NCBI GenBank assembly: GCA_044892525.1
Contig: CM097885.1
Span: 4,714,001 to 4,778,000 of the forward strand
Source of the DNA: Schmidtea polychroa
Lineage: Eukaryota
Direction of reading: 5' to 3'
DNA: 64,000 nt
In this document: piece by piece, positions 3,001-50,583 of the stretch
Layout: every line of letters begins with the position of its first letter
Numbering within the stretch: position 1 is the stretch's first letter
Made by a program: the position numbers and the translations under genes
The notes under the pieces: model-generated
What the model was told of the DNA's origin: nothing
The model's database searches: none
The model's input: the letters and a program-made list of their open reading frames with translations, nothing else

Positions 3001-3072
3001 GATTCTTGAGGGTGTAAATGTGCAAGTATTGACCAGACGAAACATTTGTTATCATTATTCTGTATGTTTATA
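1..3072 (-). pseudogene. Protein-primed family B DNA polymerase (A1), central/C-terminal part; nonsense codon at 2739; runs off window
   Basis: Near-identical to ORF 50584..54744; CAA>TAA at 2739..2741; split at 3072/3073 by Polinton B. Confidence 0.93.
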
Positions 3073-4802
3073 AGTAGGTAGATAGTAGCCCACGGGAACA
3101 ATTACCCCCCCCCCCCCCGAGGAGGGGTTTGTTCCCAAATTTTTATTACGCAATTGTTCCCAACTCATTTTTTTGCTTTCAGGGAATTTTAGTCCAAATT
3201 TTTTTTTATCACACTATAGTGAGGGGGTCTCGATGGTCCTGGGATTTTCAATACAAAAAAAAATTTTTCAATATAAAAACGATGGTCCTGGGATTTTCAA
3301 TACAAAAAAAATTTTTCAATACAAAAATCCGACTTCCACTAAAAAAGCATGGAATTTTCACACTATAGTGAGAGGGTCTCGATGGTCCTGGGATTTTCAA
3401 TACAAAAAATTTTTTTCTATACAAAAATCCGACTACCACTAAAAAAGCCAAGGATTTTTCAGACTATAGTGAGGAGGTCTCGATGGTCCTGGGATTTTCA
3501 ATACAAAAAAAAATTTTCAATACAAAAACGATGGCCCTGGGATTTTCAATACAAATAAAATTTTTTCAATACAAAAACGATGGTCCTGGGATTTTCAATA
3601 CAAAGCTGGTCTACACTAAAAAGCCAAGGATTTTTCAGACTATAGTGAGGTGAGTCTCCTTGGTCCTGAGAAATAGGTGGTCTACACTAAAAAAGCATGG
3701 TAATTTAAGGTCTCAGGATATTTTCAATACAAAAAGCTGGTCTACACTAAAAAAGCCAAGGATTTTTCAGACTATAGTGAAGTGAGTCTCCTTGGACCTG
3801 AGAAATAGCTGGTCTACACTAAAAAAACGTGGTAATTTAAGGTCTCAGGATATTTTCAATACAAAAAGCTGGTCTACACTAAAAAAGCATGGTAATTTAA
3901 GGTCTCAGGATATTTTCAATATAAAAAGCTGGTCTATACTAAAAAGGCCAAGGATTTTTCAGACTATAATGAGGTGAGTCTCCTTGGTCCTGAGAAATAG
4001 GTGGTATACACTAAAAAAGCATGGTAATTTAAGGTCTCAGGATATTTTCAATACAAAAAGCTGGTCTACACTAAAAAGCATGGTAATTTAAGGTCTCAGG
4101 ATATTTTCAATACAAAAATCTGGTCTACACTAAAAAGCCAAGGATTTTTCAGACTATAGTGAGGTGAGTCTCCTTGGTCCTGAGAAATAGGTGGTCTACA
4201 CTAAAAACATGGTAAATTTTTCAATTAAAGTAAATTAAGGTTCTAAAAATTTCAAATAAAGTAAATTATGGTCCAAATTTTAAAATTAAAGTAAATTATG
4301 GTTCTAAAAATTAAATTATAGTAAATTATGGCTCAAATTTTTCAATTACAGCAAATTATGGTCCTAAAAAATTAAATTAAAGTAAATTATGGCTCAAATT
4401 TTTCAATTACAGTAAATAATGGTTCTTAAAATTGAATTAAAGTAAATTATGGTCCAAATTTTTGAATTAAAGTAAATTATGGTTCTAAATTTTTCAATTA
4501 CAGTAAATTATGGTCCAAATTTTGAATTACAGTAAATTATGGTTCTAAAAATTAAATTAAAGTTAATTAAGGTCCAAATTTTTAAATTAAGTAATCAATG
4601 GTAAAAAATTTTAAATAAGTAAATTAAAGTAAGATTTTAAAATTTATTAACAAAAAGTTGAAGGTGTTTGAGAATTGAAATTTTTTAATGAAAATTTTTA
4701 TGGAATAATTTTTTAAGTAATTTTTAATGGAAATTTTTATGAAATATTTTTCAATGATAATTTTAGATGGAAATTTTTAAGATAATTTTTAATGAAAATT
4801 TT
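3073..4802 (+). repeat. Left TIR of Polinton B, built of tandem sub-repeats
   Basis: Reverse complement of ~17017..18320; units such as GGTCCTGGGATTTTCAATACAAAA and AAAGTAAATTATGG; inner boundary approximate. Confidence 0.88.
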
Positions 4803-4834
4803 TATGAAATATTTTTCAAAGACAAATTTTAATA

Positions 4835-5860
4835 ATAATTCAACAACAAACCAACAACTTAGTACCAACAACCAGTAACTTATGAACATGTATTAACAAC
4901 CAGATACCTACAACTAGTTACTAACAACCAGTTACCTGATACCAGATACCTACAACTGGATACCTACAACTAGTTACCTGATACCAACTACTAACAACCA
5001 CCTACCCATTAACTAGCTACAACTAGCTAACAACTAGCTACCACCTAGCAAGTACTAACAACCACCATCAACCAGGTACTAAGCATTATTAACCAACTAC
5101 CAAGTACTTACAACAAGTTACTAACAACCAGTTACCTGATACCAAGTACCTACAACTAGATACCACGTACTAAATAACTCTCAAACAACCAAGTACCTAC
5201 AACTAATTACCAGATACCAAGTACTATCAACCAGCTAACAACCTGATACCAACTACTCACGACCAGATAACAACTAACAACCAGATACCAAGTACTTACA
5301 ACTAGTTACTAACAACTAGCTACCAACTACTAAGTACTAACAACCAACATCAACCAGGTACTAAGCATTATCAACCAAGTACTAACAACTAGATACCTAG
5401 TTACTAACAACCCGCTAACAACTAACAACTAGATACCAAGTACCAGTAAATTACGAACATGTATTAACAACCAGATACCTACAACTAGTTACTAACAACC
5501 AGTTACCTGATAGCAACCAACTAGCTACCAACTACTAAGTACTAACAACCAACATCAACCAGGTACTAAGCATTAATTACCAACTACTAAGTACCTACAA
5601 CCAACTAACAACCACCTACCAAGTACTAAGCATTATCAACCAACTACTAAGTACCTACAACCAACTAGCTACCACCTACCAAGTACTAACAACCAGTTAC
5701 CAACTACTAAGCATTAATTACCTACAACTAGTTACTAACAACTAGCTACCAAGTACATACAACCAGACACTAAGCATTATCAACCAAGTACTAACAACCA
5801 AGTAACTTACCTAGTACTAAGCACTGTCAACTAGATACCAAACACTTACAACCAGATGAC
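4835..5860. repeat. Strand-biased A/C-rich degenerate minisatellite (AACAACC/TACC/ACTAAG units)
   Basis: Visible reiteration, G-poor on + strand, no ORF. Confidence 0.75.
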
Positions 5861-6169
5861 CACATGAAATTATTGGTTAAATATGAAAATAAGGATTATA
5901 TTTAGTTGTTAAGTAAATTGTGGTGTAAAATTAAGAAATAAAGAATAATTAGTTAAATTAAAGTTAAAAATTTTAAATAAGTAAATTAAGGTTCAAAATT
6001 TAAAATTAAAGAAAACAATGGTTCAAATTTTAAATTAAAGCTAAATGAGTAAATTAAAGTAAGATTTTTAATTTTATTATCAAAAGATTGAATAACCACC
6101 AACATTTTTGAGAAATGTAATTTATAATGAAAATTTAAATGGAAATTTAAATGGAATAATAATAATAAT

Positions 6170-6213
<44 letters not shown>

Positions 6214-9200
6214 TAATAATAATTCAACAGTTACCAACAATCGGTTACTGATTATTTTTTAACTAGGTGCTAACAAATACTTACAACTAGATACCACGTA
6301 CTAACTAACTCTCAAACAATCAGATACTTACAACTAACTACTAAATATTCTTCACTGTATTTTATGAAATGCTTTTTAAATTAATTTTTTATCTATCTTC
6401 AAAAATATATTTAATTACAATCATTAGAAAAACCTTTTCAAATTTAACAAAAATGTTGATTTTCATCAAAAAACCACAACTCATCACCACGTGGAATTCA
6501 AAATAATTACAATGAAAGACTAATGAATTCTAATTTACAAAACATTCTTCTTTTAAATGATAACTTATTATTGCAATGTAAAAATCGCATTCAATAAATA
6601 CTTATTGTTGATCAGTTTTATTATATATACTCTGAGTTTATCCGACAGGATGTTTTGACCCCCCTAAGGGTACAGGTCGTAAGGGTACTGGTCGTAAGGG
6701 TATTAGTCGTAAGGGTACTAGTCGTAGGGGTATTGGTAACACTCAACCCCCATCTACCCATTAACCACCTAACAAGTACCAACAACCAAGTCTCAAACAA
6801 CTAAATACTAAACACTAACAACCAACAACAACCAGGTACTAAGCATTATCAACCTACAACTATATAACAACAATCAGTAAACAACACTGTACCAACTACC
6901 AAATACAAGAAACCAACAACTTAGTACCAACAATCAACTAACAACACATAAAAATAATAGCAATTAAATAAAAAAAATTATTCTTCATCGCATACACTAT
7001 TTTCTTATCAAAATCTAAAAAGTCAACCAACTACTTACAACCTACAACTATGTACTAACAAATTGATCTTTAAAAGCAAATACTCATCACTTGAAAAATT
7101 AGATGGAAAATTATTTGAACTCAAGGCATCAATAACTAGGTAAAATTTGATTAAATTATTGTAAAAATTTAAATTATTCAAAATAAATATCATAAAAATT
7201 TAATTAATGGACAGGAAAAAAATTCTAATCATTAATCATCCAGTAAATAAAAAAAATACTGATCATTCAAGTTGAATCAACTAAGATAATAAATTAATAA
7301 AAGTTTTGAAATAAGATCTAGATTTAGATTGAATAAAATTAATTTTAATTATTTTTGTAAAAGTAATACATGTACTCAAATTGATTAACTGATTTCTCAA
7401 TATATTCAAAAAATCAGTATAAATTCATTACAATTATCAAAGTCAGCAATCTACAATAAAAATAATTATCATTAAATTCCAAAAGAGACTAGATAACTAA
7501 TGATAACATCTAACAAACCAGTAAATTCATTTAAATGGCAATAATTGGTATATCCAAGTGAATTCTCTAATAGAATCATCTAAAAAGCATCATTTTCCCT
7601 AAATATATCAATATTTAAAGATTGGTATTGTAATGATAAATACTTGTTAAAGATCATATATTCTCATCAAACTAATAAGATTCCTTAAAATCCCTTAAAT
7701 GACTATATTTCTACCCTTAATTCATATTATTACAAATAATTCATTAAAATCATCTAAAAAGCATCATTTCCCCTAAATATATCAATATTTAAAGATTGAT
7801 ATTTTAATGATAAGTACCCGTAAAGGATCATATATTCCCCTCAGACTAATAAGATTGCTTAAAGTCCCATTTAAATGACTATAATTCTAACTTTAATTCC
7901 TATTATCACGAATATTTCCCTATAAAACATGTAAAATCATTAACCCTAAATAATTTATAAAATCTAATGATAAAAGTGGTTATAATTAAATTTTTGTTAA
8001 TCACTGTACTCGATATTTTAAATAAATATTACTACAATATAACTGACTAGGTCCTATTGAAAGATTAAATTTATCCATTCAATAAAATATATTTCTTCAA
8101 ATGATCATTTTTACCAATATTCAACCGATTTAATTACTAATTAAAATCAAGATTTCTTCCAATAAAGATCAATTTTATTTAGTCAATGTTTTAAGTCCAT
8201 ATTTCTCAACTTTTGTCGTTGTCCGTCTAAATAAAGATAAAAATAATTTAAAGTTGATATCAATCCCAAATATCTGTAACGTTTTCATCGTCAAAACCAA
8301 GTAAATCGATCATTATCCTTACTTAATAATCCATAAATCTAAATTAATATACAATGAATTAATCACAACCTAATAAAACGATATAATTATTATTGATACA
8401 TAACTGACTAATTGACATTTCCCTTAAAACAATGATATTTTACCAACATCACCATTAAAAAAATCATATATTCCCATCTTAACCGATGTCTCATTAAATT
8501 TAACCGACTATATTCCCATCTTAACCCATCCTTCATTAAATTCAATCGACTATATCTCCCTTACAATGATATATTCCTACCTTATCCGATCTCTCATTAA
8601 ATTCAATCGACTATATCTCCCTTGCAATGATATATTCCCATCTTAACCGATTTCTTATTAAAGTCAATCGACTATATCTCCCTTACAATGATCTATTTCC
8701 ATCTTAACCCATCCCTCATTAAATTTAATAACCGACAATATCCCATCTTATCCGATCTCTCAGCAAATATTTCTACCCTTTTAAACATCTATCCGATTAT
8801 ATCCCTTATTTTCCCTAAAGATTTCACCCACTTGAGCCCTTTAATATATATCAATCCTCTTAAAATCCTCAGAGAACTTCAAAAATCTGACTTTTAATTA
8901 ATTGTTATAGAACCAGACAAATAATAAGAGCCCATTAAAAGATCAAAATTCACTAAATTTTCTACAAATATTTACCATCAAATACTGGAGATGATATATA
9001 TTGATTGATCATAATTCTTCAGCTATTCAACCAATCATTTTCAAGCAATAACAGCAAACTAAATTTCTGTATATCCTATAATAATTATCACGTAAATTTA
9101 AAGTCCTTGATAAAGTTAACTGGTTTCTTAGCTTATGTTTTTTAAAGGGCATCAATGTGTAAATATTCTTAGAAAATTATTCTTAGAAAATTATTTATTC

Positions 9201-10837
9201 AAATATATTACAAAGTTATCATCAAAAATAACTTAATTATTAACCTAATTGTCAATGAAATTAATTTTTATTTAAAAACTATTCAATAAAATACAACTAA
9301 TTATCAAGAAATTAATTAAATTTATCAATTAAATTTATCACCATTAAAACTTTTAATCAGTCAACATGAAATTCTTAGAAAATTATTCAATATCCTCATC
9401 AAAATTTATCCTACCACTTGATTATTGTACAAACTTTAATTATTAACCTCATTAAAAATAAATTTTTATTTAAAATTAAAAAACAAGTCAATAAAAATAC
9501 ATTCAATTATCATGAAATTAATTAAATTTACCTTAGAATTAGCATTAAATTACAGATATTCACAAAAATTACGGAAATTCATGAAAATAATGGAAATCCA
9601 TAAAAATGATAGAAATTCATAAAAACGATAAAAATTCACAAAAATGATAGAAATTCACAAAAATGATAGAAATTTACTTGAATAAAACCATCAACTCTAA
9701 AAATTATCAATACCTTAAACATCAAATTTGCCCAAATAATCATTCAAATAAAAGCATTAAATGATCAGTACCCTTGCGACATGTTGAATGTGAGTAGTAC
9801 CCTTGTGAGCAATACCCATAGGGGGACAGAATATTTTGTCGGATAAACTCAGAGTATATATTAATTAACTCATTCTTCATTGAATTAGTCAAATTATCAT
9901 AAATTTCGATAAAAATTCTAAAGTGGTAAGCAATGTAAAGAGAAATATTCTTTAAACTTTGATAAAATTAACAATGAAGGTGGTAAGAATCTTCATTAAA
10001 GTGAGGAAATTATTCATTACTCGATTCAAATGGGTGAAAATAATTGGTAGAATAATTCATTAATGGATCATTGAATGGGCATAGATAAGAAGAAAGTTGA
10101 TAAGAATGCAAATATATTAATTGAATTTATTTAAAATTATTTCATAAAATTCATAAATTTAATAAAAAAAAGAAATATTTGTGGGGAATAATTAATCAAA
10201 ATCGGGGGGAATATAAGTGATAATAATTAGTGGAAAATAGAGAATCGGGGGGATATAAGTGAGGAGGATATATAATTTAAACTAGTTTATTACATAACAA
10301 CCCGCGACTAGTTTATTACATAACAAGCCGCGTCTAGTTTATTACATAACAAGCTGTGAATGGTATTTTATTGAGAATTATTGATTAGGTCTTTTTTATA
10401 ATTTTTGAATAAGTACTTTAATACCTTAATAATTTAAATGTTTTGATTTACACTAAATAATTTCTAAATCAATTACCCTTTTCAATCAAAATAAGATCAA
10501 TTATATACCTTTTTATAAAATTCAGTTAAAATCAAATACTTTCCACTAAATTTAAAATATATAAATTTTACAAGTTTTTCAAATTTTCAAATAATGTAAA
10601 TAAGAAATTAATCTATTACCAGTTACATACTTATTGACGGAATTACGTAATAGAAATAAAAAGTAACTTAGGTTATTTTTTTTTTCAAAATTATGACTAA
10701 GTCCTTTAATATTGTAATAATAGCTATTTATTAATAAATTTATTATTTTACGTTAAATATTTCAAAAACAATTATCATATTATTAATTATATTACCCTTT
10801 TTAATCAAAATAAGATAACTATTCAAATAGATGATTT

Positions 10838-11161
10838 TTATAAATTACAATAAAAATTAAATACTTTTACACTAAATTTAAAAATATAAATTTTATAAGT
10901 AAATGTGAATAAGAAATAAGTTACTTCTGATTCGCCTAAATTCTCACCTAAATTATTAACAACTTTCAATTGAATATATAACAAAGTATCATTCAAATCT
11001 AAATATTCAGTCTGCGATCCATTTATGTAAAATTGAATCGAAGAAGAACCGGCATCTGTAATTGAATTTCTTGGGTATACATCTTCAAATGCTCCATGTT
11101 CAATCACTGCTTGGGGAGAAGGTCTATCAAAAAGACATAATTCTGATTTAGCACTAATCAT
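10838..11161 (-). pseudogene. Major capsid protein (PY, double jelly-roll) N-terminal ~80 aa only
   Basis: KSELCLF...DVYP...IQFYINGSQTEYLDLNDTLLYIQLKV resembles the Polinton MCP N-terminus; tail below ~10922 derives from a non-coding repeat also present at ~10470..10615. Confidence 0.8.
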
Positions 11162-11556
11162 TTTTCAAAGATGGTACCATATCCTTTCATTCTTTTGTTT
11201 ATATGTTTCTTCATAATTTTTCGGCGTTTAAGTATTCCGCCTTTTTGTTCTTTATCATTTTTAAATACATCGGATACTTTATTAATTACTTCAGGTAAAT
11301 GTTGCATCACAGCTGGTAATGATTCTTTAATTTCAGAAATTGCATTTGATTTTAAAGCAGGCAAGATATTTGCATTGTTATTTATTACGTCATTAGCTGT
11401 TTTCATACCAAAATTTCCTATTCGTCTAAGAATTGGGAGTGCAAATCTACCTATTGTCTTCAACCAACCGGTTCCATATTGTTTACCAACAAAATATGGT
11501 AAATCACCACCCGATTGGTTACTACTATAAAAATGTATTATGTCAGGATTACTCAT
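11158..11556 (-). CDS. Conserved small Polinton virion core protein (PZ-like)
   Basis: Y..QSGGDLPYFVG.QYG.G...IGRFALPILRRIG motif, basic C-terminus, position between penton and MCP. Confidence 0.7.
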   Translation of the reverse strand: MSNPDIIHFYSSNQSGGDLPYFVGKQYGTGWLKTIGRFALPILRRIGNFGMKTANDVINNNANILPALKSNAISEIKESLPAVMQHLPEVINKVSDVFKNDKEQKGGILKRRKIMKKHINKRMKGYGTIFEK

Positions 11557-12565
11557 TTATTTTACGAAAATGTAATGTCAAGTATGTTTTATCTTCTTTT
11601 CCAAATATATATTTTCCACTATCATCTCGTATATTGATTTCTATATTGTTTATATATGAAGACGATACAGGTAAGTACATTGGATTCTTTTCAATTATTT
11701 GTACTAAATCATCTTTTTTATGTTTTTCCACCCAAATACATTTCAAAAGAGGGACCAATGTATCACCAACAATAATAGGTTCGATAATATTTGTATAGAT
11801 CATCAATTGTTGATTGCGTTGTAATACTTCAGGTTCTTTAAAACCAATAATAAGTTTGTCAGTATATGCTTCTTCTAATAAACCTAAACTATTGGCTAAA
11901 AATTTACTAAATTGAACTTTACTGACATCATCATCCATTACAATTTTAACGATTTTTCCTTTTTGAATATCAACAGATTTAAATGGACGAGGATAAAAGA
12001 GTGATAGTTGATCATTTATTTGTGAAAGATCTGTAATGATATTTTCTTCGAATGTATCTGTATACTCGACATCGTAACAATATTGTATAGTTAATCGAAT
12101 TGTATCAAACTTTATTTTTCGATTATTTGGAGGAATAGTGATTTGGTTCAAGGCTTTTTTAAAAGTTATTTCTTTTTCTGAAAATCCCAATTTCTGCGCT
12201 TCTTTAATACTATCGAATTCTACTTTAAAAGGAAAATATTTACAATTAATGTTCAATGTATTTCCATCAATATATATTAAATAAAATGGAGAGTCGTGAC
12301 TGATTGTATATTCATTTTTTTCTTGGTTAAAGTAAAAGTATTCATAACTTGTATGTAATACACTTTTACTATATTTGACATTTGAATTGTTGTAAAAAGG
12401 AAAATAATTATACACAAAGGTAAAGTCCATGAGAGCTACTTCCCATTCACCATCCAAGTAAATAGGATTTTGAAATTCGACATTAAATTTACCAGCTTCA
12501 TTATTTGGATGAGTCTGAGGACAACTATTAGAAGGTAAATTCACATAAAAATCTTTTTTAATCAT
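11549..12565 (-). CDS. Minor capsid protein (PX/penton), paralogue 2
   Basis: FYVNLPSNS...IYLDGEWEVAL N-terminus; YTNIIEP..VGD..VPLL and PMYLPV...IEINIRDDSG...LTLHFRK C-terminus. Confidence 0.87.
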   Translation of the reverse strand: MIKKDFYVNLPSNSCPQTHPNNEAGKFNVEFQNPIYLDGEWEVALMDFTFVYNYFPFYNNSNVKYSKSVLHTSYEYFYFNQEKNEYTISHDSPFYLIYIDGNTLNINCKYFPFKVEFDSIKEAQKLGFSEKEITFKKALNQITIPPNNRKIKFDTIRLTIQYCYDVEYTDTFEENIITDLSQINDQLSLFYPRPFKSVDIQKGKIVKIVMDDDVSKVQFSKFLANSLGLLEEAYTDKLIIGFKEPEVLQRNQQLMIYTNIIEPIIVGDTLVPLLKCIWVEKHKKDDLVQIIEKNPMYLPVSSSYINNIEINIRDDSGKYIFGKEDKTYLTLHFRKINE

Positions 12566-13583
12566 TTATTTTACGAAAATGTAATGTCAAGTGTGTTTTT
12601 GTATCTCTACTAAATTTTATTAATTTTCCACTATCATCTCGTATATTGATTTCAATGTTGTTTATAGAAGAATTAGAAATTGGTAGATACATTGGATTCT
12701 TCATTTCTAGTTGCACAATTTCTCCTTGTTCATATTTTTTTTTCCAAATAGATTTCAATAACGGAACTCTTACATCTCCAACAGTCAATGGTTCGATAAT
12801 ATTTGAGTAAATAAACATTTGTTGATGATGATTAAATAACTTTGGAATTTTTGTTCCAATAATTTCTTTCTCTGTAAATGTTTGTTTCTTTAATCCCAAT
12901 GTTTTTGTTAAATTTTTATCAAAGGTTATTGATGAAATGTTATCAGCAAGACTTATTTTAACCAATTCATTATTTTGTATTTTTAAATCTTTAAAGGGAG
13001 ACGGATTAATTGTCATTAACTGACCATGTATTTCAGATAAAGTATTGATGTATAGTTCATCTTCGAAATAATGTTCAAATTTTGTTTTTTCAACAACACT
13101 TATAATTATACCAAATTGATCAATTGTTTTATCTTCTGTAAATTTTGGTAATTTAATTCGCAAATGATCACTATCACTAATAACCGATACTGATTTTAAT
13201 CCAAATTTAATAGCATGTTCAAAATCTGGAAACGTTATTTTAAATGGAACATGTGGACAAACAACAACCAAATTCTCATATCTTTCAATGAACATGTCAA
13301 CTTCAGGAGTATTTTTAGGATTTATTACTTCAAAGGTTCGATTTGAATTATTTATTCTAAAATATTTAATTTCTTCATCCATCTTTACTTTTTCATATTG
13401 TATCAATGAATTACTGTAATAAGGAAAAGTATTATACACAAAGGTAAAGTCCATGAGAGCTACTTCCCATTCACCATCCAAGTAAATAGGATTTTGAAAT
13501 TCGACATTAAATTTACTAGCTTCATTATCGGGGAAAATAAGAGGACAACTATTAGAAGGTAAAATAATATAAAAATCTTTCAT
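12558..13583 (-). CDS. Minor capsid protein (PX/penton), paralogue 1
   Basis: Same terminal motifs as the neighbouring gene with a divergent middle. Confidence 0.87.
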   Translation of the reverse strand: MKDFYIILPSNSCPLIFPDNEASKFNVEFQNPIYLDGEWEVALMDFTFVYNTFPYYSNSLIQYEKVKMDEEIKYFRINNSNRTFEVINPKNTPEVDMFIERYENLVVVCPHVPFKITFPDFEHAIKFGLKSVSVISDSDHLRIKLPKFTEDKTIDQFGIIISVVEKTKFEHYFEDELYINTLSEIHGQLMTINPSPFKDLKIQNNELVKISLADNISSITFDKNLTKTLGLKKQTFTEKEIIGTKIPKLFNHHQQMFIYSNIIEPLTVGDVRVPLLKSIWKKKYEQGEIVQLEMKNPMYLPISNSSINNIEINIRDDSGKLIKFSRDTKTHLTLHFRKIND

Positions 13584-13588
13584 AATAT

Positions 13589-14737
13589 TTATTTAATCAA
13601 TTGATTTTCGGATATCCAAGATGGAGTTTCATATCCATGCCATTTAACATAGTATTGTTTATATTTACCATCTTTTTTGGTTTTTAAAATCTTTTGAATT
13701 CTAAATATTGTAGGAGCAGGAATTACTTGGAGTTCTTGTTCATAGAATTTACCAGTGATTGGTTTGTTTTCATGATCAACTATCACATACATGACAGGAT
13801 TCTGTTTTGTATCGATTTTAAAAATTTGATATACTTCATCACTCCAATTATTATCAAAGTTTTTGATGAATGGTGAAGAATTGATTTTACTAATTCTTAC
13901 ATGATCACCAACCTTGTATTTCGGTTTATTGATTTTTTCTGACTTTGTTTGATTTTTAGTAAAATCTGCAGGTGTTTGTCCTTTTAATCCTCTGTGTGGT
14001 GAATGATTGTAACTGAAAATAATTTTTGGCAAAACATTTATCCAAGTTTTATTACCTTGATATACAAAATATTTTTTCAAGCGTTCTCTTAAAGTTCGAT
14101 TAAATCGTTCTACGTGAGCAGCTTTGAACTGAGAAAATACTGAGTAATGGTTTATTCCTTTGATAACCTCTTTAACTTTGCTGTTATAAAATTCTTTACC
14201 TAAATCATATATTTAAAAATTAATTAATTAAATTTAATTACCTAAATCCGTTTGTAAATTAATAGGTTTACCATCTCCAAACATTTCTTTTATCGCATCA
14301 GCCATTTCATTTGCAGATTTAGTTTTTGTAGGAACAGCACGAGCATATCTATTAAAAACATCTATACAAGTCAGAATATATTTGTACCCCTTGTTAATTT
14401 TTGAATAAGGTATCATTTCCATCAAATCCATTTGCCATACATCATTGTTTCCAATTGTTTTGTATGGTCTTGTTGGAAAACGTTTCAACATTGGTTTATT
14501 TAAACTATATGCTAATTGATTAGATAACCATTTCTGAGTTTCTTTCTTTGAATTATTCACTCGTTTTGTTAATTTTTCTACGTCACCAAAACCATCTGGA
14601 TCTTTTGGGTTTGTCCATATGGTTTTTAACTTTTTCTCTATTGTTTTCACTTTTTTCACTTTTGTTTTCACATTTGTTTTCACTTTTGTTTTCATTTTTT
14701 CCACTTTTGTGTTGGTTTTGTGATACGTTTCCTTCAT
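13589..14737 (-). CDS. Retroviral-like (rve) integrase with C-terminal chromodomain; two exons (14737..14242, 14199..13589)
   Basis: WQMDLM (D), QTDLG-KEFYN (D) restored by removing GT..AG 14241..14200, HVERFNRT (E), YYVKWHGY..SWI chromodomain; start codon uncertain. Confidence 0.9.
14200..14241 (-). other. Putative 42-nt spliceosomal intron in Polinton B integrase
   Basis: GTAATT...TTTAG on minus strand, contains in-frame TAA, removal restores the DxGxEF motif. Confidence 0.8.
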
Positions 14738-14806
14738 TATTACAACAAGTTGTCAAAATATTAAAATCTACAATATTTTTATTTGGTAATGAACTCTTGA
14801 TACCCA

Positions 14807-15178
14807 TTAAGAACTTAATGATGAGATTGCACTAATTGCAGATAAGACTATAGGAATTAGTGCACCCAAGAACCCTCCTTTTTGTTTATATATTATCTTT
14901 CTCATTAGACGACGATTTTTTGTATCAACTAGAGATAAAAGTGATCTTTTATGTCTTTGCAATACTAATCTTTTAGCTTTAGTTATATTTACATTACCGC
15001 GGACAACATTTATAATAACTTCAAGTAAATCATCAATAACAAATGATGGAAAAGACTGTAAAATTGATATTCGTTTCGAATTTGGTGCCTTTATTAAAGC
15101 ATTAAAATATGGTAAGCTCCGTTCAAATTTCATTATTATTATTAATTTACGCGACGGATTGTTTATAATTTGATCCAC
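14807..15178 (-). CDS. Polinton conserved protein with adenovirus pX-like C-terminal GGFL hydrophobic helix
   Basis: N..RGNV motif and QKGGFLGALIPIVLSAI tail; located between ATPase and integrase; start uncertain. Confidence 0.72.
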   Translation of the reverse strand: MDQIINNPSRKLIIIMKFERSLPYFNALIKAPNSKRISILQSFPSFVIDDLLEVIINVVRGNVNITKAKRLVLQRHKRSLLSLVDTKNRRLMRKIIYKQKGGFLGALIPIVLSAISAISSLSS

Positions 15179-15322
15179 TTCTTGATTTGTTTCTTAGTTT
15201 TTGTACTTTTTGTACTTTTTGTTTTCTTTGTACGTTTTGTTTTCTTGGTAATTTTCTTCGAAACACTTGGAAGATTTTTAACAACTACTTTTTTAAATGA
15301 CATGATTAATTTTATTTAGTTT

Positions 15323-15946
15323 TTAGTTTTGTTTATAAATCGTAACACCGTTTATATTAAAAATATCAGTTCTAATACGCATATCATCTGGACATTGTTG
15401 TGTAAAATCAAAAAATAAATATTCATGAGGAATTTTTGTCGCATCTTGGAATGAATCAATCAAAAATTTTCTATTATTTGGATAAGCTTGTCTTGCAAGA
15501 AAATCTATTATTGTTTGATCTCTAGGATTTTTGAAAATAATTAAATATTGGACATTTAAATTACGTGTTCTATGACTTCCACCTTGATGAAAAAGATTTT
15601 GTGTAATGAAAATAACTGTAACTCCGCAATGTCTACTGATTTTTGTAAATAAATTATTAAAATCTTTTTCTTTATTTGCTTCCTGGTACAGATCATCGAT
15701 AATAATAACATCACCTTGACGTAATCTAGATGACCAATTTTTATCAAATCCTTTAATTATTGTCATTTTTAATTTACAGAAACTGTTTTGAGTCAATCCA
15801 TGTTCTTCATCTGCACCTCGATGCCAATATATTTTATTAAATTTAGATTTAAACATGTTTGATTGTAATAAATTACATACAAATAAAGTTTTCCCGCGTC
15901 CACTAGGTCCTACTATTTGATATACTGCGTCATTTCTTAATTCCAT
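15323..15946 (-). CDS. A32/FtsK-like DNA packaging ATPase
   Basis: Walker A GPSGRGKT, Walker B IIIDD, SRH, ITQN, FKNPRD. Confidence 0.92.
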   Translation of the reverse strand: MELRNDAVYQIVGPSGRGKTLFVCNLLQSNMFKSKFNKIYWHRGADEEHGLTQNSFCKLKMTIIKGFDKNWSSRLRQGDVIIIDDLYQEANKEKDFNNLFTKISRHCGVTVIFITQNLFHQGGSHRTRNLNVQYLIIFKNPRDQTIIDFLARQAYPNNRKFLIDSFQDATKIPHEYLFFDFTQQCPDDMRIRTDIFNINGVTIYKQN

Positions 15947-15996
15947 TTTTTAATTAAATTATTTTATTTAATTTGTTTATAATTACAATAATTAGA

Positions 15997-16473
15997 ATGA
16001 TCAGCAACATTAATTATAGAGGAAGATGTGTAGTAAATGGAATGAAGTTCCCATCAGGAAAACCTCAACATGTCGTGGACAGAAGTGGAAAATATCCAAT
16101 TTTATTCTTCAAGAGCGGGAAATGTAGGATAATGGGATGTAAGAAACCATTACAGGAAGGCGATCTCAAATATCAGATTCAAGATTTACAAATCCAATCA
16201 ATTACATTAACGCTAGATATGGGTACATGCATTGATTTAAATGCATTGTCAAGAAAAACCGATAGTTACTACGAGCCTGAAATATTTCCAGCTTTACGTA
16301 TTCTCAAGTATAACCCCCTATGTGTAAATGTTTTTTCAAGTGGGAAAGTTGTTATATTAGGGATTAAAACATTTGATTATTTTAATCAAATTCAAGAAAT
16401 TCAGAAATTCATTAAATCATTAACTATAAATATCACAACAAATGAAGAAATATTGGAATATTTATTAAGTTAA
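15997..16473 (+). CDS. TATA-binding protein (TBP)-like protein carried by Polinton B
   Basis: Two TBP-like repeats: ILFFKSGKCRIMGCK and YEPEIFPAL...VNVFSSGKVVILG; first ATG at 15997; intronless. Confidence 0.8.
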   Translation: MISNINYRGRCVVNGMKFPSGKPQHVVDRSGKYPILFFKSGKCRIMGCKKPLQEGDLKYQIQDLQIQSITLTLDMGTCIDLNALSRKTDSYYEPEIFPALRILKYNPLCVNVFSSGKVVILGIKTFDYFNQIQEIQKFIKSLTINITTNEEILEYLLS

Positions 16474-16536
16474 TTAAATTAATTTAATTAATTGTGTTTA
16501 AATTAACTGAATATCTACAATAACAAAAATTCAAAA

Positions 16537-16884
16537 ATGGATGACGATAAGCAAGCTTACATATTCCAGACTATATTAACGAAGATGGAAGAATTGTTCC
16601 CGAATATAAGGAACAGACTTTCATATTGTGCTCCGGAATTATTAGCTTATAGAATCAAGCAATTAACGGGGATCAATATAGAAAAACTTATACGAAGACA
16701 TTTCGAATCTGTACAAGAATCAAGATTTAAATGCATAGACGATTGTGAAGTATGTATGGATCGGATGAAATTACCATGTCCGTTTAGATGTAGATGCTGC
16801 CAAGAATATAAGATGAAAGAAGTTGTTCATATTTTACTAGCAGAATTAAGAAGAGCTTATTACAAGCAAATATTGGATGAATAA
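16537..16884 (+). CDS. Hypothetical Cys-rich (putative Zn-binding) protein
   Basis: 115-aa ATG-initiated ORF with CIDDCEVC...CPFRCRCC. Confidence 0.6.
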   Translation: MDDDKQAYIFQTILTKMEELFPNIRNRLSYCAPELLAYRIKQLTGINIEKLIRRHFESVQESRFKCIDDCEVCMDRMKLPCPFRCRCCQEYKMKEVVHILLAELRRAYYKQILDE

Positions 16885-17016
16885 ATTTTATATCTTTACA
16901 TTTGTTATTTGTTTGTGTTTTATGTGTCTAGTTCATTTTTATGTATTTGGTCGATATATTATTATTATTTTTATTATTATTATTCCATAAAAATTTCCAT
17001 TAAAAATTACCATTGA

Positions 17017-18320
17017 AAATTTTCATTAAAAGTTATCTTAAAAATTTCCTTCTAAAATTATCATTGAAAAATATTTCATAAAAATTTCCATTAAAAATTA
17101 CTTAAAAAATTATTTCATAAAAATTTCCATTAAAAAATTTCAATTCTCAAACACCTTCAACTTTTTGTTAATAAATTTTAAAATCTTACTTTAATTTACT
17201 TATTTAAAAATTATTACTTATTTAAAATTTTTTACCATTGATTACTTAATTTAAAATTTAGACCTTAATTAACTTTAATTTAATTTTTAGAACCATTATT
17301 TACTTTAATTGAAAAATTTGGACCATAATTTACTGTAATTTAATTTTTTAGAACCATTATTTACTTTAATTGAAAAATTTGAGCCATAATTTACTTTAAT
17401 TTTAATTTTTGGATCATTATTTACTTTAATTGAAAAACTTGGACCATAATTTACTTTAATTTAAATTTTTGAGCCATTATTTACTGTAATTTAATTTTTT
17501 AGAACCATTATTTACTTTAATTTAAAAATTTGGACCATTATTTACTTTAATTGAAAAATTTACCACGTTTTTTAGTGTAGACCACCTTTTTCTCAGGACC
17601 AAGGAGACCCACCTCACTATAGTCTGAAAAATCCTTGGCTTTTTTAGTGTAGACCAGCTTTTTGTATTGAAAATATCCTGAGACCTTAAATTACCATGCT
17701 TTTTTATTGTAGACCAGCTTTTTGTGTTGAAAAATTTTTTTTTTGTATTGAAAATCCTAGGACCATCGTTTTTGTATTGAAAAATTTTTTGTATTGAAAA
17801 TCCCAGGACCATCGTTTTTGTATTGAAATTTTTTTTTTTGTATTGAAAATCCCAGGACCATCGTGACCCCCCCACTATAGTCTGAAAATTCTATGCTTTT
17901 TTATTGATAGCCGGATTTTTGTATTGAAAAAAATTTTTTGTATTGAAAATCCCAGGACCATCGAGACCCCCTCACTATAGTCTGAAAATTCCTTGGCTTT
18001 TTTAGTGTAGACCAGCTTTTTGTATTGAAAAAAATTTTTTGTATTGAAAATCCCAGGACCATCGAGACCCCTCACTATAGTCTGAAAATTCCTTGGCTTT
18101 TTTAGTGTAGACCAGCTTTTTGTATTGAAAAAAATTTTTTGTATTGAAAATCCCAGGACCATCGAGACCCCCTCACTATCACAATAAAAAAAAATTTGGA
18201 CCAAAAATCCCTGAAAGCAAAAAAATGAGTTGGGAACAATTGCGTAATAAAAAGTTGGGAACAACTCCCCCCCCCCCCCCCCGGGGGGTAATTGTTCCCG
18301 TGGGCTACTATCTACCTACT
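17017..18320 (-). repeat. Right TIR of Polinton B
   Basis: Reverse complement of left TIR with different sub-repeat copy numbers; ends GGGCTACTATCTACCTACT. Confidence 0.88.
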
Positions 18321-19000
18321 TTTATAACATTTTTAGATTTAAAGGGTGTAGGAATATAAGATTTAGGACTAGGTGGTAATCCTCTCCAATAATCAATCAC
18401 TAAAGTTTGGAAAGAGTTGAATACTAAGTTTGAATCTCCTATTTCATTTTCAACCTCTTCTTGTTTTGCTTCTACTGCTTGAATTATTTCTTTGATGGTT
18501 TTATCAAATCCTTTAGTTGAAAATAAATATTTAAAGGGTATTCCAATTTCAACATCTAAAGGTGTTGTCTTTTCTTCTGCTCCTCGCCAGTATTTTGCTT
18601 TGATTATAATTTTATATTTTATAACATTATACCTTGTCGGTTTATAATTTTTTAAAGCTTCAGTGAAAGAATTTTTAATATTTTTTTTATTTTATTTATA
18701 TATTCTCCAGGAGTTATAGGTCCATTGATTTCTAATTGAAATTCATCTACATGATTAAAATCATCCCAGTTATCATTTCTCTCTCTAACATGATCAGGTT
18801 CTCCTTCTGAATGACATTCCTCATCGTCAGAATTTTGTTTTTTATTTTTACATTCTTTTATATGTTCTAAATAATAGAAATTTACTTTTGTTGTAAAGTT
18901 ACAATGAGGACATGTAAATATTTCTCTATTTTTCCCGATACAATTTTCAAAATGTTTATTATATCCAGAATGTAGAAATCTTCCTTTACATTTAGGACAA
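18321..19000 (-). pseudogene. N-terminal part of A1 pPolB (C2H2 fingers), frameshifted, start deleted
   Basis: Matches 53948..54628; frame lost near 18690; joined to TIR sequence at 19000. Confidence 0.9.
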
Positions 19001-19255
19001 TTATCGCCACCTGTCTTTCGAACACCCCCGGATCGATTCTTTAATGTGCACATTTATTTCTCAGTTGTTTTCGGACCTCTTTCGGATTCACTTTCGAATT
19101 CATTTGTACTTTCGAGCAGCACGCTTAAAACGCCGATGAAATCGTATTCGAGCGAGAAGCGAATAATAAGGTGTGCTGCTATTATCGGATTGATTCTGAT
19201 GTATGAGTCTGGCCAGCTTGTATATTGGAAGAGATTTCATAAACGAAAGAGGTTG

Positions 19256-22142
19256 TTAGACAATATAGAAATAGGACATCCAGTTATAATTTATCCGACT
19301 TAATATATAATCCGTTAGATTAACCCATGAAATTAAAAGACATTAGAAAATTTTAGGCCAAAAATCCCGGCTTAATAATTAACGTTTTTTCTTATGACAA
19401 TAGCAAACAATTAACAGATCCACATTTAGACATTATACATCGTTCCAAAGTTTTAAATGGAACTGTAATTAATTTACTACTATTAAATAAAGGAAACAAT
19501 TTCCATTACGTTGCTATAAGTAATTTAAATAGGTTATTGAATTGTGGTATCAACACTACTTGTCACACACGCATACAATCATTATGGTGCCATCGGTGTT
19601 TGAATGGTTTTAAAAATAGAAACGCACTGGAAAAACATGAAATATTATGTAAACGTAATCAATTAGGAACAACTCTTTACACTTTCCCTCAAAATAAATT
19701 ATTGCAGTTTACTGACTGGTCGAAAACAGTAACTCCTCCTTTTGTAGTTTATGCCGATTTTGAGGCTATTTTACCTTCTGATAATCTTCATTTCCAACAA
19801 CACATGCCAATATCTGCTGGTCTTTTACTTGTAAATAACTTTGATGGATCTAAATCATATCAACAGTTCATAGGTTTAGATTACGTCGAGAGTTTTTTAA
19901 GTGCTATAGAGGATATAGCATTAAATAAGGTTCTTCCTTTTTATTATAAAATGGGTAGGAAACCTATGATTAAATTAACGAAAATTGAACAACATCAATT
20001 TCTTAGTGCTTCCGTTTGCTATCTTTGTTTGAAATCTATCGTCGATCCTGTTAGAGATCACGATCATTTTACGGGGAAATACTTGGGTGCAGCTTGTAGC
20101 ACTTGTAACATAAATAGGAAAATAAATAAAATTTTGCCTATCGTATTTCATAACTTGAAGGGATACGATATGCATCATATACTTAAATACGGATTAAATA
20201 AATTTAAAATTGGACTTTAGGTTGCATCCCAATAACGACTGAAAAATTTATTTCTTTGATTGCTCATTAAGGCAAAATTAGCTTAAGATTCATTGATTCT
20301 TATCAATTTGTCAATGATTCTTTAGCTAAAGCAGTCAAAACTTTGAATTCTTTGCCTTTTACTAATTCTGTTTTTTCTGGTACTATAGTTTCTGAAAAAG
20401 GAATCTTCCCTTATAATTTCGCCACTTCTTTAGATATTCTCCAAACTAATTATGAATTACCACCAATCTGGGAGGGTGTCACTGAGCTTGAGTATGAAAA
20501 AGCTCAGGAGATTTGGGTAGAAACTAACTGCGTAACTTTATTAGATTATATGATGATCTACCTAAAACTTGATTGTTTTCTTTTGGCTGATTTCTTTCAT
20601 CAGTTTCGGTTGAAATCCATTGCTCACAATAGATTGGAACCATTGAATTATTTCGGAATTCCAGGTATGTCTTGGTCTTCTGCATTAATGTCTTTAAATG
20701 AACCAATTGAGCTCATAACTGAAAACGAAATGTTTAGCTTTTATGAGGGTGGAATAAGAGGCGGTCTTACTTTTGTGAATAAGCATTACGTAAAAACCGA
20801 CGAGAACACCGAGTTACTTTATATAGATATTAATAATCTTTATGGTTGGGCTTTAAGTCAATCATTACCTTGTGGCGAATTTAGTTGGGTTCTTCATGGA
20901 TTTGATTTAATAATGGATGAATGTAGGAATTTAAATCTTGAATCTTTGTCTTATGGATACACTCTTGAAGTTGATCTTGTAATTCCATCTGAGCTTCATG
21001 ATAAGTTGGATGATTTCCCTGTAGCTGCTGAAAAAATGAAACCTGTTGGGTCTAAGGTTGAAAAATTATTATTAACTCATCTTCCAAAATCTAATTATGT
21101 GATTCATTGGAGATTATTAAAATTATATTTGGAACTTGGTGTTAAAGTAACACGTGTAAATAGGGGTGTAAGATTTAAGCAATCTCCAATTTTTAAAAAA
21201 TATATAGATACAAATACAGAATTAAGGTCAAAAAGCATAAATAACTTAGATAAAAATTATTATAAATTGCTAAATAACAGTTTATACGGCAAAACAGTTG
21301 AAAATTTAAAGAGAAGAATGAATCTTCGTCTTTGTACAACTGCCGGTAAACTTGTTAAATATTCTTCGAAGCCAACTTTTAAAAAATCTATTAAAATAGA
21401 CGATAATTTAATCGCGGCATTATTGAATTCAGATTCTATATGTTTAGATAGACCAAGTTACATTGGTCAATCTGTACTTGATCTATCTAAACTTAGAATG
21501 TATGAATTGCAATATAAGGATCTGGAATCATTTCGCAATGAGTTTAATTGTAAAATTAATATCGTTGCAGGTAATACAGATTCGTTTTTCCTCGAAGTCA
21601 TTAACTGTAAACTTGAGGTTCTTTTACCTGCAATGATTTGAGATAATTTATTGGATACTTCCAATTACAATAGTTGTCATTCCTTATATAGTAAGAACCT
21701 TGATTCAGTCATTGGAAAGTTCAAAGACGAGAATAAAGGTCTTAAATATAAGGAATGGGTTTTTCTTAGACCTAAATGTTATAGCTTGTTGGGTGATGAG
21801 GAAACAAAAAAGGCTAAAGGTGTAACATTGAAAGGTAGTGACATAAAACATCAGTCATACCTGGATTGTTATAACACTAACCAGATTTTTTCGGTTCCTC
21901 AGACTAAAATAACAAGCAAAAATCATCAAATTTTTACAATTAAAAACACAAAAATAGCACTAACTAACAAAGATGACAAAAGGGTTTGGGTGGGGAAAAA
22001 TACTAGTCTTGCATATGGGCATGTAAGATTAAGTGAATTAAATGTTGGAGAAAATGATGGAGAAGATGAGGAAGAATTAAATGAAGATTTTGGAGAAGAT
22101 GACATCGATATCGATGACGTTATTTTGTCCGATGAGGACTAA
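19256..22142 (+). pseudogene. pPolB of Polinton D (B-related family), 5'-truncated, with frameshift and stops
   Basis: YADFE, DHDHFTGKYLGAAC..CN, FHNLKGYD, YIDINNLYG, KLLNNSLYGK, GNTDS, KGV, DDKR spread over ORFs 19537, 20343 and 21651. Confidence 0.93.
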
Positions 22143-22329
22143 TTTTATTGAATAAATTTTATATCTTTACATTTGTTATTTGGTAAATTTTTATGTTTGT
22201 TATGTGTCTAGTTCATTTTTATGTGTTTAGTTAATGTTTATATGTTTTGTTATGTGTCTAGTTATTTTTATGTGTTTAGTTAATTTTTTATGTGTTGTAT
22301 AGTATTTGGTTGATATATTATTAATATTA

Positions 22330-22373
<44 letters not shown>

Positions 22374-23574
22374 TCATAAAAATTTTCATTAAAAATTATC
22401 TTAAAAATTATTCTATTAAAATTTCCATTAAAAATTATCATTGAAAAATATTTCATTAAAATTTCTATTAAAAATTAATTAAAAAATTTATTTCATAAAA
22501 ATTTCCATTAAAAATTACCATTGAAAAATATTTCATAAAAATTTCCATTAAAAATTATCTTAAAAAATTATTTCATAAAAATTTTCATTAAAAAATTTCA
22601 ATTCTCAAACACCTTCTATTTTTTGTTAATAAATTTAAAAATCTTACTTTAATTTACTTATTACATTACTTTAATTTACTTATTTAAAAATTATTACTTT
22701 AATTTACTTATTTAAAAATTATTACTTTAATTTACTTATTTAAAAATTATTACTTTAATTTACTTATTTAACTTTAATTTAAATTTTTTTTACCATTGAT
22801 TATTTAATTTTTTAGAACCTTAATTTAGTTATTTGTGCCCATTCATTACTTTAATTTAATTTTTTAGGACCATTATTTACTTTAATTGAAAAATTTGGAC
22901 CATAATTTACTTTAATTTAATTTTTTAGAACCATTATTTACTTAATTTAAAAATTTGAACCTTAATTTACTTAGTTGAGCCCTTAATTAACTTTAATTTT
23001 AAATTTTGAACAATTATTTACTTTAATTTAATATTTTAGAAATTAAATTTACTTTAATTTAAAAATTTGGACCATAATTTACTTTAATTGAAAAATCTTA
23101 GCCCATAATTTACTTATTTAGACCATAATTTACTTTATTTCAAAAAAAAATCTGAACCTTGATTTACTTAAATTTTTTAGACCCATCATTTACTTTATTT
23201 TTAAATTTTAGACCCATAATTTGCTTTATTTTAAAAATTTACTATGCGTTTTTAATGTAAACCACCTTTTCTATTGAAATTCTCATGACCATCGAGACCC
23301 CTTCACTATTGTGTGAAAAATCCATGCTTTTTTATTGAAGACTACCTTTTTCTATTGAAATTCTCAGGACCAAGGAGACCCACCCAAATAATATTTATCC
23401 TTGGCTTGTTTATTGAAAAAAAAAAATATGTATTTAAAATCCCAGAAAACATTGGGCATTATGGCAACAATTATGTAATCAAAAAATGTCTAGGAAAAAG
23501 TTATGCAATCAAAATTTTGCAACATTTTTTACCCCCCCCCCCCTATTGTTCCCGTAAGCTACTAACTACCTACT
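19256..23574 (+). mobile_element. Polinton D right half (pPolB plus right TIR)
   Basis: Ends GTTCCCGTAAGCTACTAACTACCTACT at 23574, similar to the B terminus; TIR sub-repeats similar to B; left end absent. Confidence 0.87.
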
Positions 23575-25095
23575 AGAGTAGGTTCATTTTTCACCACTTC
23601 AAAACAAATTGTAATGTTGTGAATTTTTTCAAAGAACTGAATGGCAGTACGTGGTCGATAAAATTGAGTTTTCTTTCCTGAATGATGTTTGACGATGTTG
23701 GCTCCGTTAAGCCAATTGAAGCTTTTTTGTATTGATGGTTGGTTATTTCCAAGCCTAGGTCCAGTGACAAACTTTAATGAGTCGACATTAATCCTTCTAA
23801 TATATTCACTATTTGATGTAAATAGTCTGAAAAAATGACTTACCGTCTGTATGTGGTATTCATCAAGGAGATCAGTACAAGATGCACCACCATTTTCAAT
23901 GGAGTTATAAAAATAGCTAATTTCAGATTGATCGGGCAAATTCATCATCTTTCTCAAGTGACAGCGAAGTTGTGTAGTGCAATTACCGAGGTTTGCTGAA
24001 AGAGCTTTAATCTTAATTTCTCTAGTTCGAAAAGGGAACACTAAACGAGAGTGAAGGAAGACTTTGTATGCTTTCAATTTTTGCCATCCAAATAAATCAG
24101 AATCTGCTAGTTTCTTTGTATCACTAACTACTTTATTTAATATTTCATAAAGACTTTGGTCAAGTTCTTCTCCGATTGGTAAATTTCTTTTGTTAATAAT
24201 TTATTTATTTTAATATTGTCAATTGACACTTCACTAACAGTGTCAATATTTGGCAACTGGATGAAAGCACATTTTTCAGGTTGGTATTCAAACTCAATTT
24301 CACAAGCTGTATCGAAAGCAACTTTTATGATATTTTGCTAATCATGAGTATTATTAGCGATAAGAGCGACATCATCAGCATATGCGAGAACTTGGATCGA
24401 AGAATCGCCAATTTTGAAAGGTTCAACTAACAGCTAGGAGAACAGGATTAATTGAAATTGCGAACAAAATCATGGAAAGAGGACATCCTTGTTTGACTCC
24501 TTGCTTTATTGAAATATTCGGAGTTACTATCGGACCACAAGTGTAGAAGGAGCTGGTATCAGTGTATAATAGTTTTAAAGTGTTCGTGAATTTTTCACAA
24601 ACCCCAATATGTCGCAAAATCTTCCACAAGTAATCATGGGGTACACTACCAAAAACATCTTTGATGTCAAGAAACCCAATAGCAATTGGTCTATTTTTAA
24701 TATATTTTGAGTGTTCCAGACAACCATCGTGTACAGAACCACCTTTTTGTCTGATATGAAGTAGATTGTTTTGTTTTACCCATGTTGTAAGGTGTCTGGC
24801 TAAAATCGTCGCAAATATCTTATAGACCACCGATAACAAAGCAATAGGGCGCCAATAAGAAATCAAAGTATATTTATCTCCCTTGTTAGGTTTAGGAATC
24901 ATCAGAGTCTTAAGAGATTTCCAAACATCCGGCACAGTATTTTCTGTTATGAGTTTGTTATAAAGAAGAGTCAACAATTTACCCTCTGGATCAAGAATTG
25001 CAATATCCATATATTGAATTCCATCAAGTCCAGGAGATGTATTATCAGCTATTTTTAATTCAAAAACAACCTCCTTATCTACTATCGGTCGGAGT
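23575..25095 (-). pseudogene. Non-LTR retrotransposon reverse transcriptase (R2/NeSL-like), degraded, cut by Polinton D
   Basis: SPGLDGI, WRPIALL, GVKQGCPLS, VLAYADD (~24370..24390), thumb region in ORF 23562..24077; clade assignment tentative. Confidence 0.88.
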
Positions 25096-25280
25096 AGAAG
25101 AATTATTTTAGATTTTAATCCAAATTTTTAGACATTATCATAGTTGATATAGTTGTAAGTATTTGGTTGTAAGTATCTGGTTGACCTTTTAAATTTTGAC
25201 TTAAACATATTTGATTTTAATAATTTAGGAATTGTGGGGTTTTGGCCTTTGGTAATTTAGGGATAAATAGGTAAATTATA

Positions 25281-34307: not shown

Positions 34308-35025
34308 AGTAGTGTGTATATATACCCAACCAACACAACCCTCCCAACAAAAACATACCTCCATTACGCTTAACCCATTAGAAAACAACCCAAAACTTAT
34401 ACTTTTATAGTATTTTAACCCCATATTTTAAACAACAACCACCCTTAATCTTTCAAGCCTCAAACTCAAAAGCTTCAAACTAAAAAGAGAATAGAAAAGA
34501 AAATGGCATTATGAAAAAGTTAGAGGGCTATTTGGGTTAGGGCTATATACACACTACTTTTGATCGCAATCAAACTTCGGAGTTGATCTTTATCAGATTA
34601 TTGATTTTAAATTATATAAATTAAAAAATAAATGAAAAATAGTAAAACTGCTCTGAGGGGACAGTGGCATTTTTTTTTTCACTGTCCCCTCAACAGTTTT
34701 TTTTGATCCGGATCATTTCAACCCCTTTCGTTTATCAAATCTCTTCTAATATACAAGCTGGCCAGACTCATACATCAGAATCAATCCGATAATAGCAGCA
34801 CACCTTATTATTCGCTTCTCGCTCGAATACGATTTCATCGGCGTTTTAAGCGTGCTGCTCGAAAGTACAAATGAATTCGAAAGTGAATCCGAAAGAGGTC
34901 CGAAAACAACTGAGAAATAAATGTGCACATTAAAGAATCGATCCGGGGTGTTCGAAAGACAGGTGGCGATAATTGCCGGTTCGCCACCATCACCCGTTTC
35001 AATAATTTTTTTTTCATATTTATGT
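34308..35025 (+). repeat. Left TIR of A2 (718 bp)
   Basis: Near-perfect reverse complement of 55039..55756. Confidence 0.95.
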
Positions 35026-36230: not shown

Positions 36231-36241
36231 GTCGACAAGCC

Positions 36242-48510: not shown

Positions 48511-48513
48511 GAA

Positions 48514-49221: not shown

Positions 49222-49245
49222 AGATTCATTTTAAATTATTAATAA

Positions 49246-50505: not shown

Positions 50506-50583
50506 AATGGGTGTATTTTTAAAAAAGTAGATCAGGTTGCTATAGTTGCTTAAATTAATTGTCGACATTTTATTATTAAAAAA

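Follow-up and report, generated by a model that had tools for sequence, protein, structure and literature searches.

Intact vertebrate Mavericks have been described as carrying intronless open reading frames (ORFs), no introns having been observed, in agreement with Kapitonov and Jurka 2006 (available text of PMC8097293, Barreat and Katzourakis 2021), and viral genes are assumed to be free of introns (available text of PMC9356565). A literature search listed no report of a Polinton integrase that contains a spliceosomal intron; most subscription papers, supplements and Repbase annotations, which could mention introns, lay outside its scope. By term, nothing relevant was found in the available parts of PMC8502044, PMC10748475, PMC11296320, PMC6431247 and PMC5718144.

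The locus analyzed here lies in a 64,000-nucleotide stretch of the Schmidtea polychroa genome (the window; contig CM097885.1, positions 4,714,001 to 4,778,000) and departs from this description, as the integrase of its Polinton/Maverick element is split by a segment of 42 nt. From the comparison of copies and families set out below, the segment is very probably an old, ordinary spliceosomal intron of minimal length that is probably functional, its splicing being what we infer from the sequences.

The split integrase and its element

The integrase gene runs on the minus strand from 14737 to 13589 and is split at 14241..14200 (Table 1). The segment begins with GT at 14241, ends with AG at 14200, is in phase 1, and lies inside a Gly codon two codons past the second catalytic Asp. 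It contains an in-frame TAA at 14236..14234, and its G+C content is 7%, while those of the two integrase exons are 30% and 29%. The upstream ORF (14234-14752) gave a Pfam rve match (E 3e-8), and the downstream ORF (13589-14212) gave weak Pfam matches to rve_3 and Chromo. The sequence-only reading that preceded this analysis had claimed that the two ORFs join when a 42-nt GT..AG segment with an in-frame stop is removed, and this was borne out. In an uninterrupted sister integrase, the motifs follow the same order as in HTLV-2 integrase.

Table 1. Features of the element and of its integrase gene in window coordinates
Feature	Position	Strand	Basis
Polinton/Maverick copy, 15.2 kb, ends AGTAG..CTACT, long imperfect terminal inverted repeats, non-autonomous	3073..18320		sequence
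6-bp target-site duplication TTTATA, left copy	3067..3072	+	sequence
6-bp target-site duplication TTTATA, right copy	18321..18326	+	sequence
PZ-like ORF and truncated 5' part of probable major capsid gene (408 codons in other copies)	10921..11556	-	inferred; no Pfam match
Two paralogous ORFs, probably minor capsid (penton) genes	11549..13592	-	position; no Pfam match
Integrase exon 2, catalytic Glu, C-terminal chromodomain-like part	13589..14199	-	ORF reading, Pfam
Second copy of 11-bp repeat GATTTAGGTAA, 7 nt segment and 4 nt exon 2	14196..14206	-	sequence
42-nt GT..AG segment, putative U2-type intron, phase 1	14200..14241	-	sequence, family comparison
First copy of 11-bp repeat GATTTAGGTAA, 7 nt exon 1 and 4 nt segment	14238..14248	-	sequence
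Integrase exon 1, ATG at 14737, first and second catalytic Asp	14242..14737	-	Pfam rve
Small core-protein-like ORF	14807..15193	-	Pfam Adeno_PX at C-terminus
Packaging ATPase	15323..15949	-	Pfam Pox_A32
TBP-like gene, head to head with ATPase	15958..16473	+	Pfam TBP, E 5e-16

The size of the segment had been likened to that of the introns in a TRAF-like host gene of the window, and the likeness holds: this gene (30188-31576, plus strand) was resolved into four exons giving a 416-codon frame with no internal stop after the removal of three predicted introns of 46, 50, and 42 nt. The 42 nt of the segment thus fall within the 42 to 50 nt of these predicted host introns and are short against published planarian introns, which are centered at 57 nt (available text of PMC4978528) or peak in size at 45-85 nt (available text of PMC13594981). 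A self-splicing group I or group II intron was ruled out by size, 42 nt at 7% G+C standing against a ribozyme core of hundreds of bases. Contigs of four runs (none of the 14 runs is recorded as RNA) were aligned on a near-identical copy (L047:1-7400, segment at 2657-2698); among the joints listed (15 of 88), none lay at the segment, the reads being cut at 2654-2691. No spliced product was found among the 120 best database homologues, none of which exceeds 82% against the families of this genome.

The element is a Polinton/Maverick (Eupolintoviridae), as established by the target duplication, which is clean and 6 bp in length, the RVE (DDE) integrase and the Pox_A32 ATPase, together with polymerase B and protease at the level of the family. 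The capsid ORFs gave no Pfam match, their size and place fitting double and single jelly-roll proteins; the penton, major capsid, and PZ labels are our assumption from position and gene order. The copy in the window is non-autonomous, as neither polymerase nor protease lies between its ends and the probable capsid gene breaks off at about 10921. When five other copies were read further, the split integrase and a protease ORF were found in all five, a long polymerase ORF in four, and an open 408-codon probable capsid ORF in four or five. A Peptidase_C5 match was obtained in another copy of the family, the protease having been lost from that of the window. The polymerase ORF of the family copies (four of the five) is 90-93% identical in DNA to window positions 19249-21546 (Pfam DNA_pol_B_2). 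The window's copy is itself inserted into a polymerase gene that belongs to a different Polinton family (flanks 2739-3101 and 18308-19053), whose 1,400-codon ORF is present at 50584-54786.

Several further features were observed. A TBP-like gene is present in a second family too (L046), and a 382-codon RING-finger ORF lies between protease and polymerase in two of the five copies read (L034:4915-6060, minus strand). Outside the element, a separate broken polymerase gene at 19357-22142 (plus strand) is 90-93% identical in DNA to that of the studied family. A distant Polinton type occupies 34914-37656 and 47195-54786, with an uninterrupted integrase at 35232-36230 (37% identical to exon 2) and with ATPase-like, capsid-like, and protease-like ORFs. 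Between 38059 and 47058 there is a large nested inverted-repeat structure with three RING-like ORF copies (41009-41335, 41805-42131, and 43887-44213), and a near-identical repeat at 22149-25127 and 61512-63557 has 30-bp arrays resembling those at the Polinton termini, after which come pieces of LINE-like ORFs (RVT_1 at 24423-25127).

The segment across copies and families

In the 781 Mb of genome searched, the exact flanks of the family were found with the segment at 214 places and without it at none (genome pattern search; reversed-pattern controls, 0). Among the 100 places listed of the 214, 98 keep both the GT and the AG, and two differ by one base in length. All 30 loci compared were about 99.7% or more identical to the window. 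This is a young expansion in which the segment is fixed. The sequence-only reading had proposed comparing other copies for presence and absence and had held out an insertion private to this copy as the alternative; the segment is not private to the window copy, and a private inactivating insertion was ruled out by these 214 places.

The same counts bear on a switch at the level of DNA, in which recombination between the two 11-bp copies of the junction repeat would delete the segment in some copies of the element, these being the sole makers of integrase. The repeat would permit an exact deletion, and uninterrupted relatives exist, but the sampled places without the segment are from other families, whose identity to the studied family is 66-77% where alignable, and families with a repeat of 2-6 bp keep the same arrangement. 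With 0 places having the family flanks alone, such a switch is hardly credible, and excision within the window's family was ruled out by that count.

The position is shared with other families. A GT(ATT)n..TTAG segment was found at the same site and in the same phase at 484 places, its length being 29-57 nt among the 100 listed, a range which the (ATT)n search pattern itself limits. Other types occupy the site at 126 places, mostly as segments of 43 or 40 nt that differ in sequence, have GT..AG ends and, at these lengths, break the frame. Smaller classes of segment were found at 1, 1, and 7 places, and segments not starting with GT at 6 places, nearly all of which are point mutants of known types. 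The interrupted places total about 830, a lower bound, and since the copy counts are clonal, the independent evidence consists of four or five families rather than 830 places. One place (G000:C2:66557241-66557306, minus strand) has yet another GT..AG interior, of 41 nt, at the integrase site and possibly represents a fifth family. In the (ATT)n family (L046:2590-2636; L058; L059), the interior is a microsatellite that is in frame and free of stops, so that retention would add 10-19 mostly Ile residues and would escape nonsense decay; its length variants form a natural series for minimal intron length, and splicing may fail in those of 29-36 nt.

Exon DNA identity between the families is 67-83%, and dS between the carrier families, at least four in number, is about 0.8-2. 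Their interiors share little beyond AT-richness, with no conserved interior motif, and the 3' ends of the segments are T-rich in all families. The dN/dS ratio was 0.06-0.22 in each exon alone, including the carrier-carrier pairs F2a/F2b, F7a/F7b, and F1/F6. The site has thus been kept while interior and length have drifted, with the exons under purifying selection. In the proteins, the D-x-G-x-E-F motif is uninterrupted in the 120 best homologues (of 817 database matches) and in 14 of 14 metagenome loci, from which it was deduced that an insert at this point is not tolerated in the protein.

These data were weighed against the possibility that the segments are not introns at all and represent inactivating AT-rich insertions in non-autonomous families, mobilized by the integrase of uninterrupted sisters. 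Such sisters are present in the same genome (125 places) and could supply integrase in trans, the window copy is non-autonomous, and splicing itself is deduced. Under this reading, however, four inserts of unrelated sequence would have to share a single nucleotide position, GT..AG ends, and a length near 40 nt. The reading is also opposed by the purifying selection on both exons along branches that have the insert at both ends and by exon 2, where 148 of the 150 best copies scored have an unbroken frame of 201 codons. It is therefore considered very improbable. Conserved ends and position, a free interior, and constrained exons give the segments the appearance of introns, and an inactivating insert would not persist four times in this way. 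The claim of a spliceosomal intron is thus well supported by the comparison: the segment is fixed in its family, three other families have segments of unrelated interior at this position, some of them of a length that breaks the frame, and the exons on both sides are under purifying selection. Since the site is shared by at least four families at dS of about 0.8-2, the presumed intron is older than the young family of the window.

Carriers may also exist beyond this assembly. This is suggested by two database proteins from other samples, P0122 and P0135, in which a short tail and a stop come directly after the motif, as in the 43-nt family. By DNA pattern, intron-bearing relatives numbered 0 in metagenome contigs and 0 in viral contigs, and no relatives were found by protein in viral contigs.

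The junction repeat and the history of the site

An 11-bp repeat had been reported at both junctions, and two perfect copies (14248..14238 and 14206..14196, 42 nt apart) are indeed present. The perfect junction repeat is shorter in other copies and families, being 10 bp in two older copies, 8 and 4 bp in the (ATT)n family, 6 bp in the 43-nt family, and 2 and 5 bp in the 40-nt family. When the interior was shuffled (200,000 times each), a repeat of at least 11 bp arose by chance in 0.7% of cases with GT..AG fixed, in 5.3% with GTA..TTAG, and in 21% with GTAA..TTTAG. Because the exon sequence TTAG|GTAA is itself a donor and acceptor consensus, most of the 11-bp repeat comes free.

The repeat had been taken to suggest that the intron was gained through duplication of an AG|GT site or through a small insertion with duplication. 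A recent gain of this kind in the window's family, by tandem duplication or by insertion with an 11-bp target duplication, would make the repeat a fresh footprint. In its favor, the empty site reads GATTTAGGTAA exactly in 11 of the 100 uninterrupted places listed, which represent a sister family that groups with that of the window; one older copy of the window type has the full 11-mer; the chance value is 0.7% when only GT..AG is fixed; and new Daphnia introns often have repeats of 4-12 bp and arise in parallel at one site (available text of PMC4202315). The 43-nt sister family, however, shares both the position and a two-residue deletion at dS 0.8-1.4, which dates the gain as not recent, the repeat measures only 2-8 bp elsewhere, its chance value rises to 21% with GTAA..TTTAG as the consensus, and the interior is no copy of the neighboring exon, a misfit with pure tandem duplication. 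Recent gain is thus rather unlikely. Of the original proposal, gain through an AG|GT duplication stands as possible, given the match to the sister's empty site, while the repeat as evidence for it is weakened by its shortness in other carrier families, by its composition of mostly consensus and exon codons and by the age of the intron relative to the family. The repeat marks a proto-splice site: it is weak evidence for gain by duplication, fits insertion with duplication and, equally well, an easy exact loss, and leaves a recent duplication unsupported.

At least three sister families have the uninterrupted motif. When the break was masked, protein trees divided the carriers into two groups: the 42-nt and 43-nt families cluster with two families that lack the segment (99/93 and 95/95), and two other such families join the 40-nt and (ATT)n carriers (92/91 and 86/89); these trees rest on one or two copies per family, with 148-252 residues each, and three of the sampled sisters are decayed single copies. 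The trees left out L057 and the window-like copies L041, L046, and L047; of the 120 homologues, 55 and 12 were included. The first DNA trees had been distorted by three loci with non-homologous flanks (L057, upstream L048, and downstream L050). Three changes of presence or absence are needed, two of which are forced by strong branches, and a single clade of carriers was rejected (AU p=0.0145). The grouping of the 42-nt family (window 14196-14100, minus strand) with the 43-nt family (L054) is accompanied by a spacing between the second Asp and the Glu that is two residues shorter (31 versus 33); among the 120 homologues, this spacing is longer in 117, shorter in 1, and not scorable in 2.

Change counts cannot separate gain from loss, and since gene callers blind to introns bias the protein set, uninterrupted outgroups cannot prove that the absence of the intron is ancestral. 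One old gain followed by precise losses is the history to which we tentatively give the most weight, at somewhat short of an even chance. A junction repeat would ease exact deletion, as in microhomology-mediated intron loss. Two gains at the same site are a reasonable possibility, and transfer by recombination between co-resident families appears doubtful. Carriers fall into two clades, each beside uninterrupted sisters, and retention would destroy the catalytic core in every family; we therefore also keep in view, as quite unlikely, a combined account in which the AG|GT site is a hotspot with at least two independent gains (42/43-nt and 40-nt/(ATT)n) and the introns are kept since retention in some cell types gates integration as in the P element. 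This patchy distribution among sister families is regarded as the most interesting part of the data.

Probable dependence on host splicing and comparison with known systems

The core ORFs do not fit the intronless description given for vertebrate Mavericks, as both integrase and protease are split. In the protease gene, the ATG plus two bases is followed by a GTAAG..AG segment of about 36-43 nt in phase 2, which was found at 2,358 places with many different interiors (100 listed); in the near-identical copy, it lies at L047:~7000-7040. One such place is 3.3 kb from an uninterrupted integrase, which indicates that dependence on splicing would be wider than the integrase intron. In two families, the polymerase ORFs (L034:~7520-7552 and L039:~2380-2412) are open behind an acceptor-like site with no fitting ATG and point to spliced leader exons. 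The lineage therefore probably carries at least two introns, in integrase and protease, and three or more with the polymerase leader.

The mechanism that we favor is as follows. The element would be transcribed in the host nucleus and the host spliceosome would remove the 42 nt at GT..AG, only the spliced mRNA giving a whole DDE integrase; translation of unspliced RNA would end within a few codons of entering the segment and would not reach the catalytic Glu. At least four families would share the intron at a single AG|GT proto-splice site, its interior drifting freely while the ends and a length of about 40 nt are kept. Since the lineage would have at least two introns and hence depend on host splicing in general, that of the integrase needs no special job.

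A special job was nevertheless considered as an addition to this explanation, namely that retention is controlled by cell type or by small-RNA silencing and gates integration, like the third intron of the Drosophila P element. In favor of this, no carrier family would keep an intact catalytic core under retention (a stop in the 42-nt family, a frameshift in the 40-nt and 43-nt families, and 10-19 extra residues in the (ATT)n family), and the segment is about as short as introns of the host are likely to be. Precedents are the P-element IVS3, the splicing of which determines transposition (available text of PMC9762592), and the many introns retained in planarian stem cells (available text of PMC4978528). 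Against regulation, neither a retained product nor an interior motif is conserved across families, sister families without the intron have also spread, and the need for splicing in the protease and probably the polymerase genes means that the integrase intron is not singular. Regulated retention, and with it the splicing switch for integration suggested in the sequence-only reading, finds no support here and is judged unlikely, and an ordinary intron is preferred.

Host-type introns in integrase and protease would mean nuclear transcription and dependence on the host spliceosome. As intact Mavericks are described and screened as intronless, the approximately 830 interrupted places in this genome would score as dead integrases and whole young families would be missed. 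With the intron present in some sister families and absent from others of the same genome, there is a compact test of gain versus precise loss in a DNA element, and the same contrast tests a possible gating of virus-like elements by the host through splicing.

The family resembles the animal Mavericks/Polintons (Eupolintoviridae, "adintoviruses") in the available text of PMC8097293 and PMC8502044 (Starrett et al. 2021) in its terminal inverted repeats, 6-bp duplication, RVE integrase with chromodomain, ATPase, adenain-like protease and, at the level of the family, protein-primed polymerase. It differs from the vertebrate Mavericks as described in the available text of PMC8097293 in that integrase and protease have short spliceosomal-type introns fixed in young high-copy families and in that the element carries a TBP-like gene. 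Introns are also present in the Polinton-like genomes of protist viruses, but those in the available text of PMC12220804 are self-splicing group I ribozymes of 309-376 nt, whereas the segment here is 42 nt with GT..AG ends.

Spliceosomal-type introns in Polinton-like elements are shared with the introners of dinoflagellate eupolintoviruses (available text of PMC12166617). Introners, however, are young copies of intron-generating transposons, whereas here the position is fixed, the interior drifts freely, and no known mobile source was recognized when interiors were compared between families. The new introns of Daphnia pulex (available text of PMC4202315) are similarly short and AT-rich, with junction repeats, presence and absence among close relatives, and possible parallel gain. 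They reside in host genes within a species and span 10^4-10^5 years, whereas the present case concerns diverged families of a mobile element in which loss is as likely as gain. As in the Drosophila P-element IVS3 (available text of PMC9762592), retention would abolish the transposase or integrase; regulation of IVS3 has been proven by experiment, whereas the present intron is known from its sequence and the retained product is not conserved.
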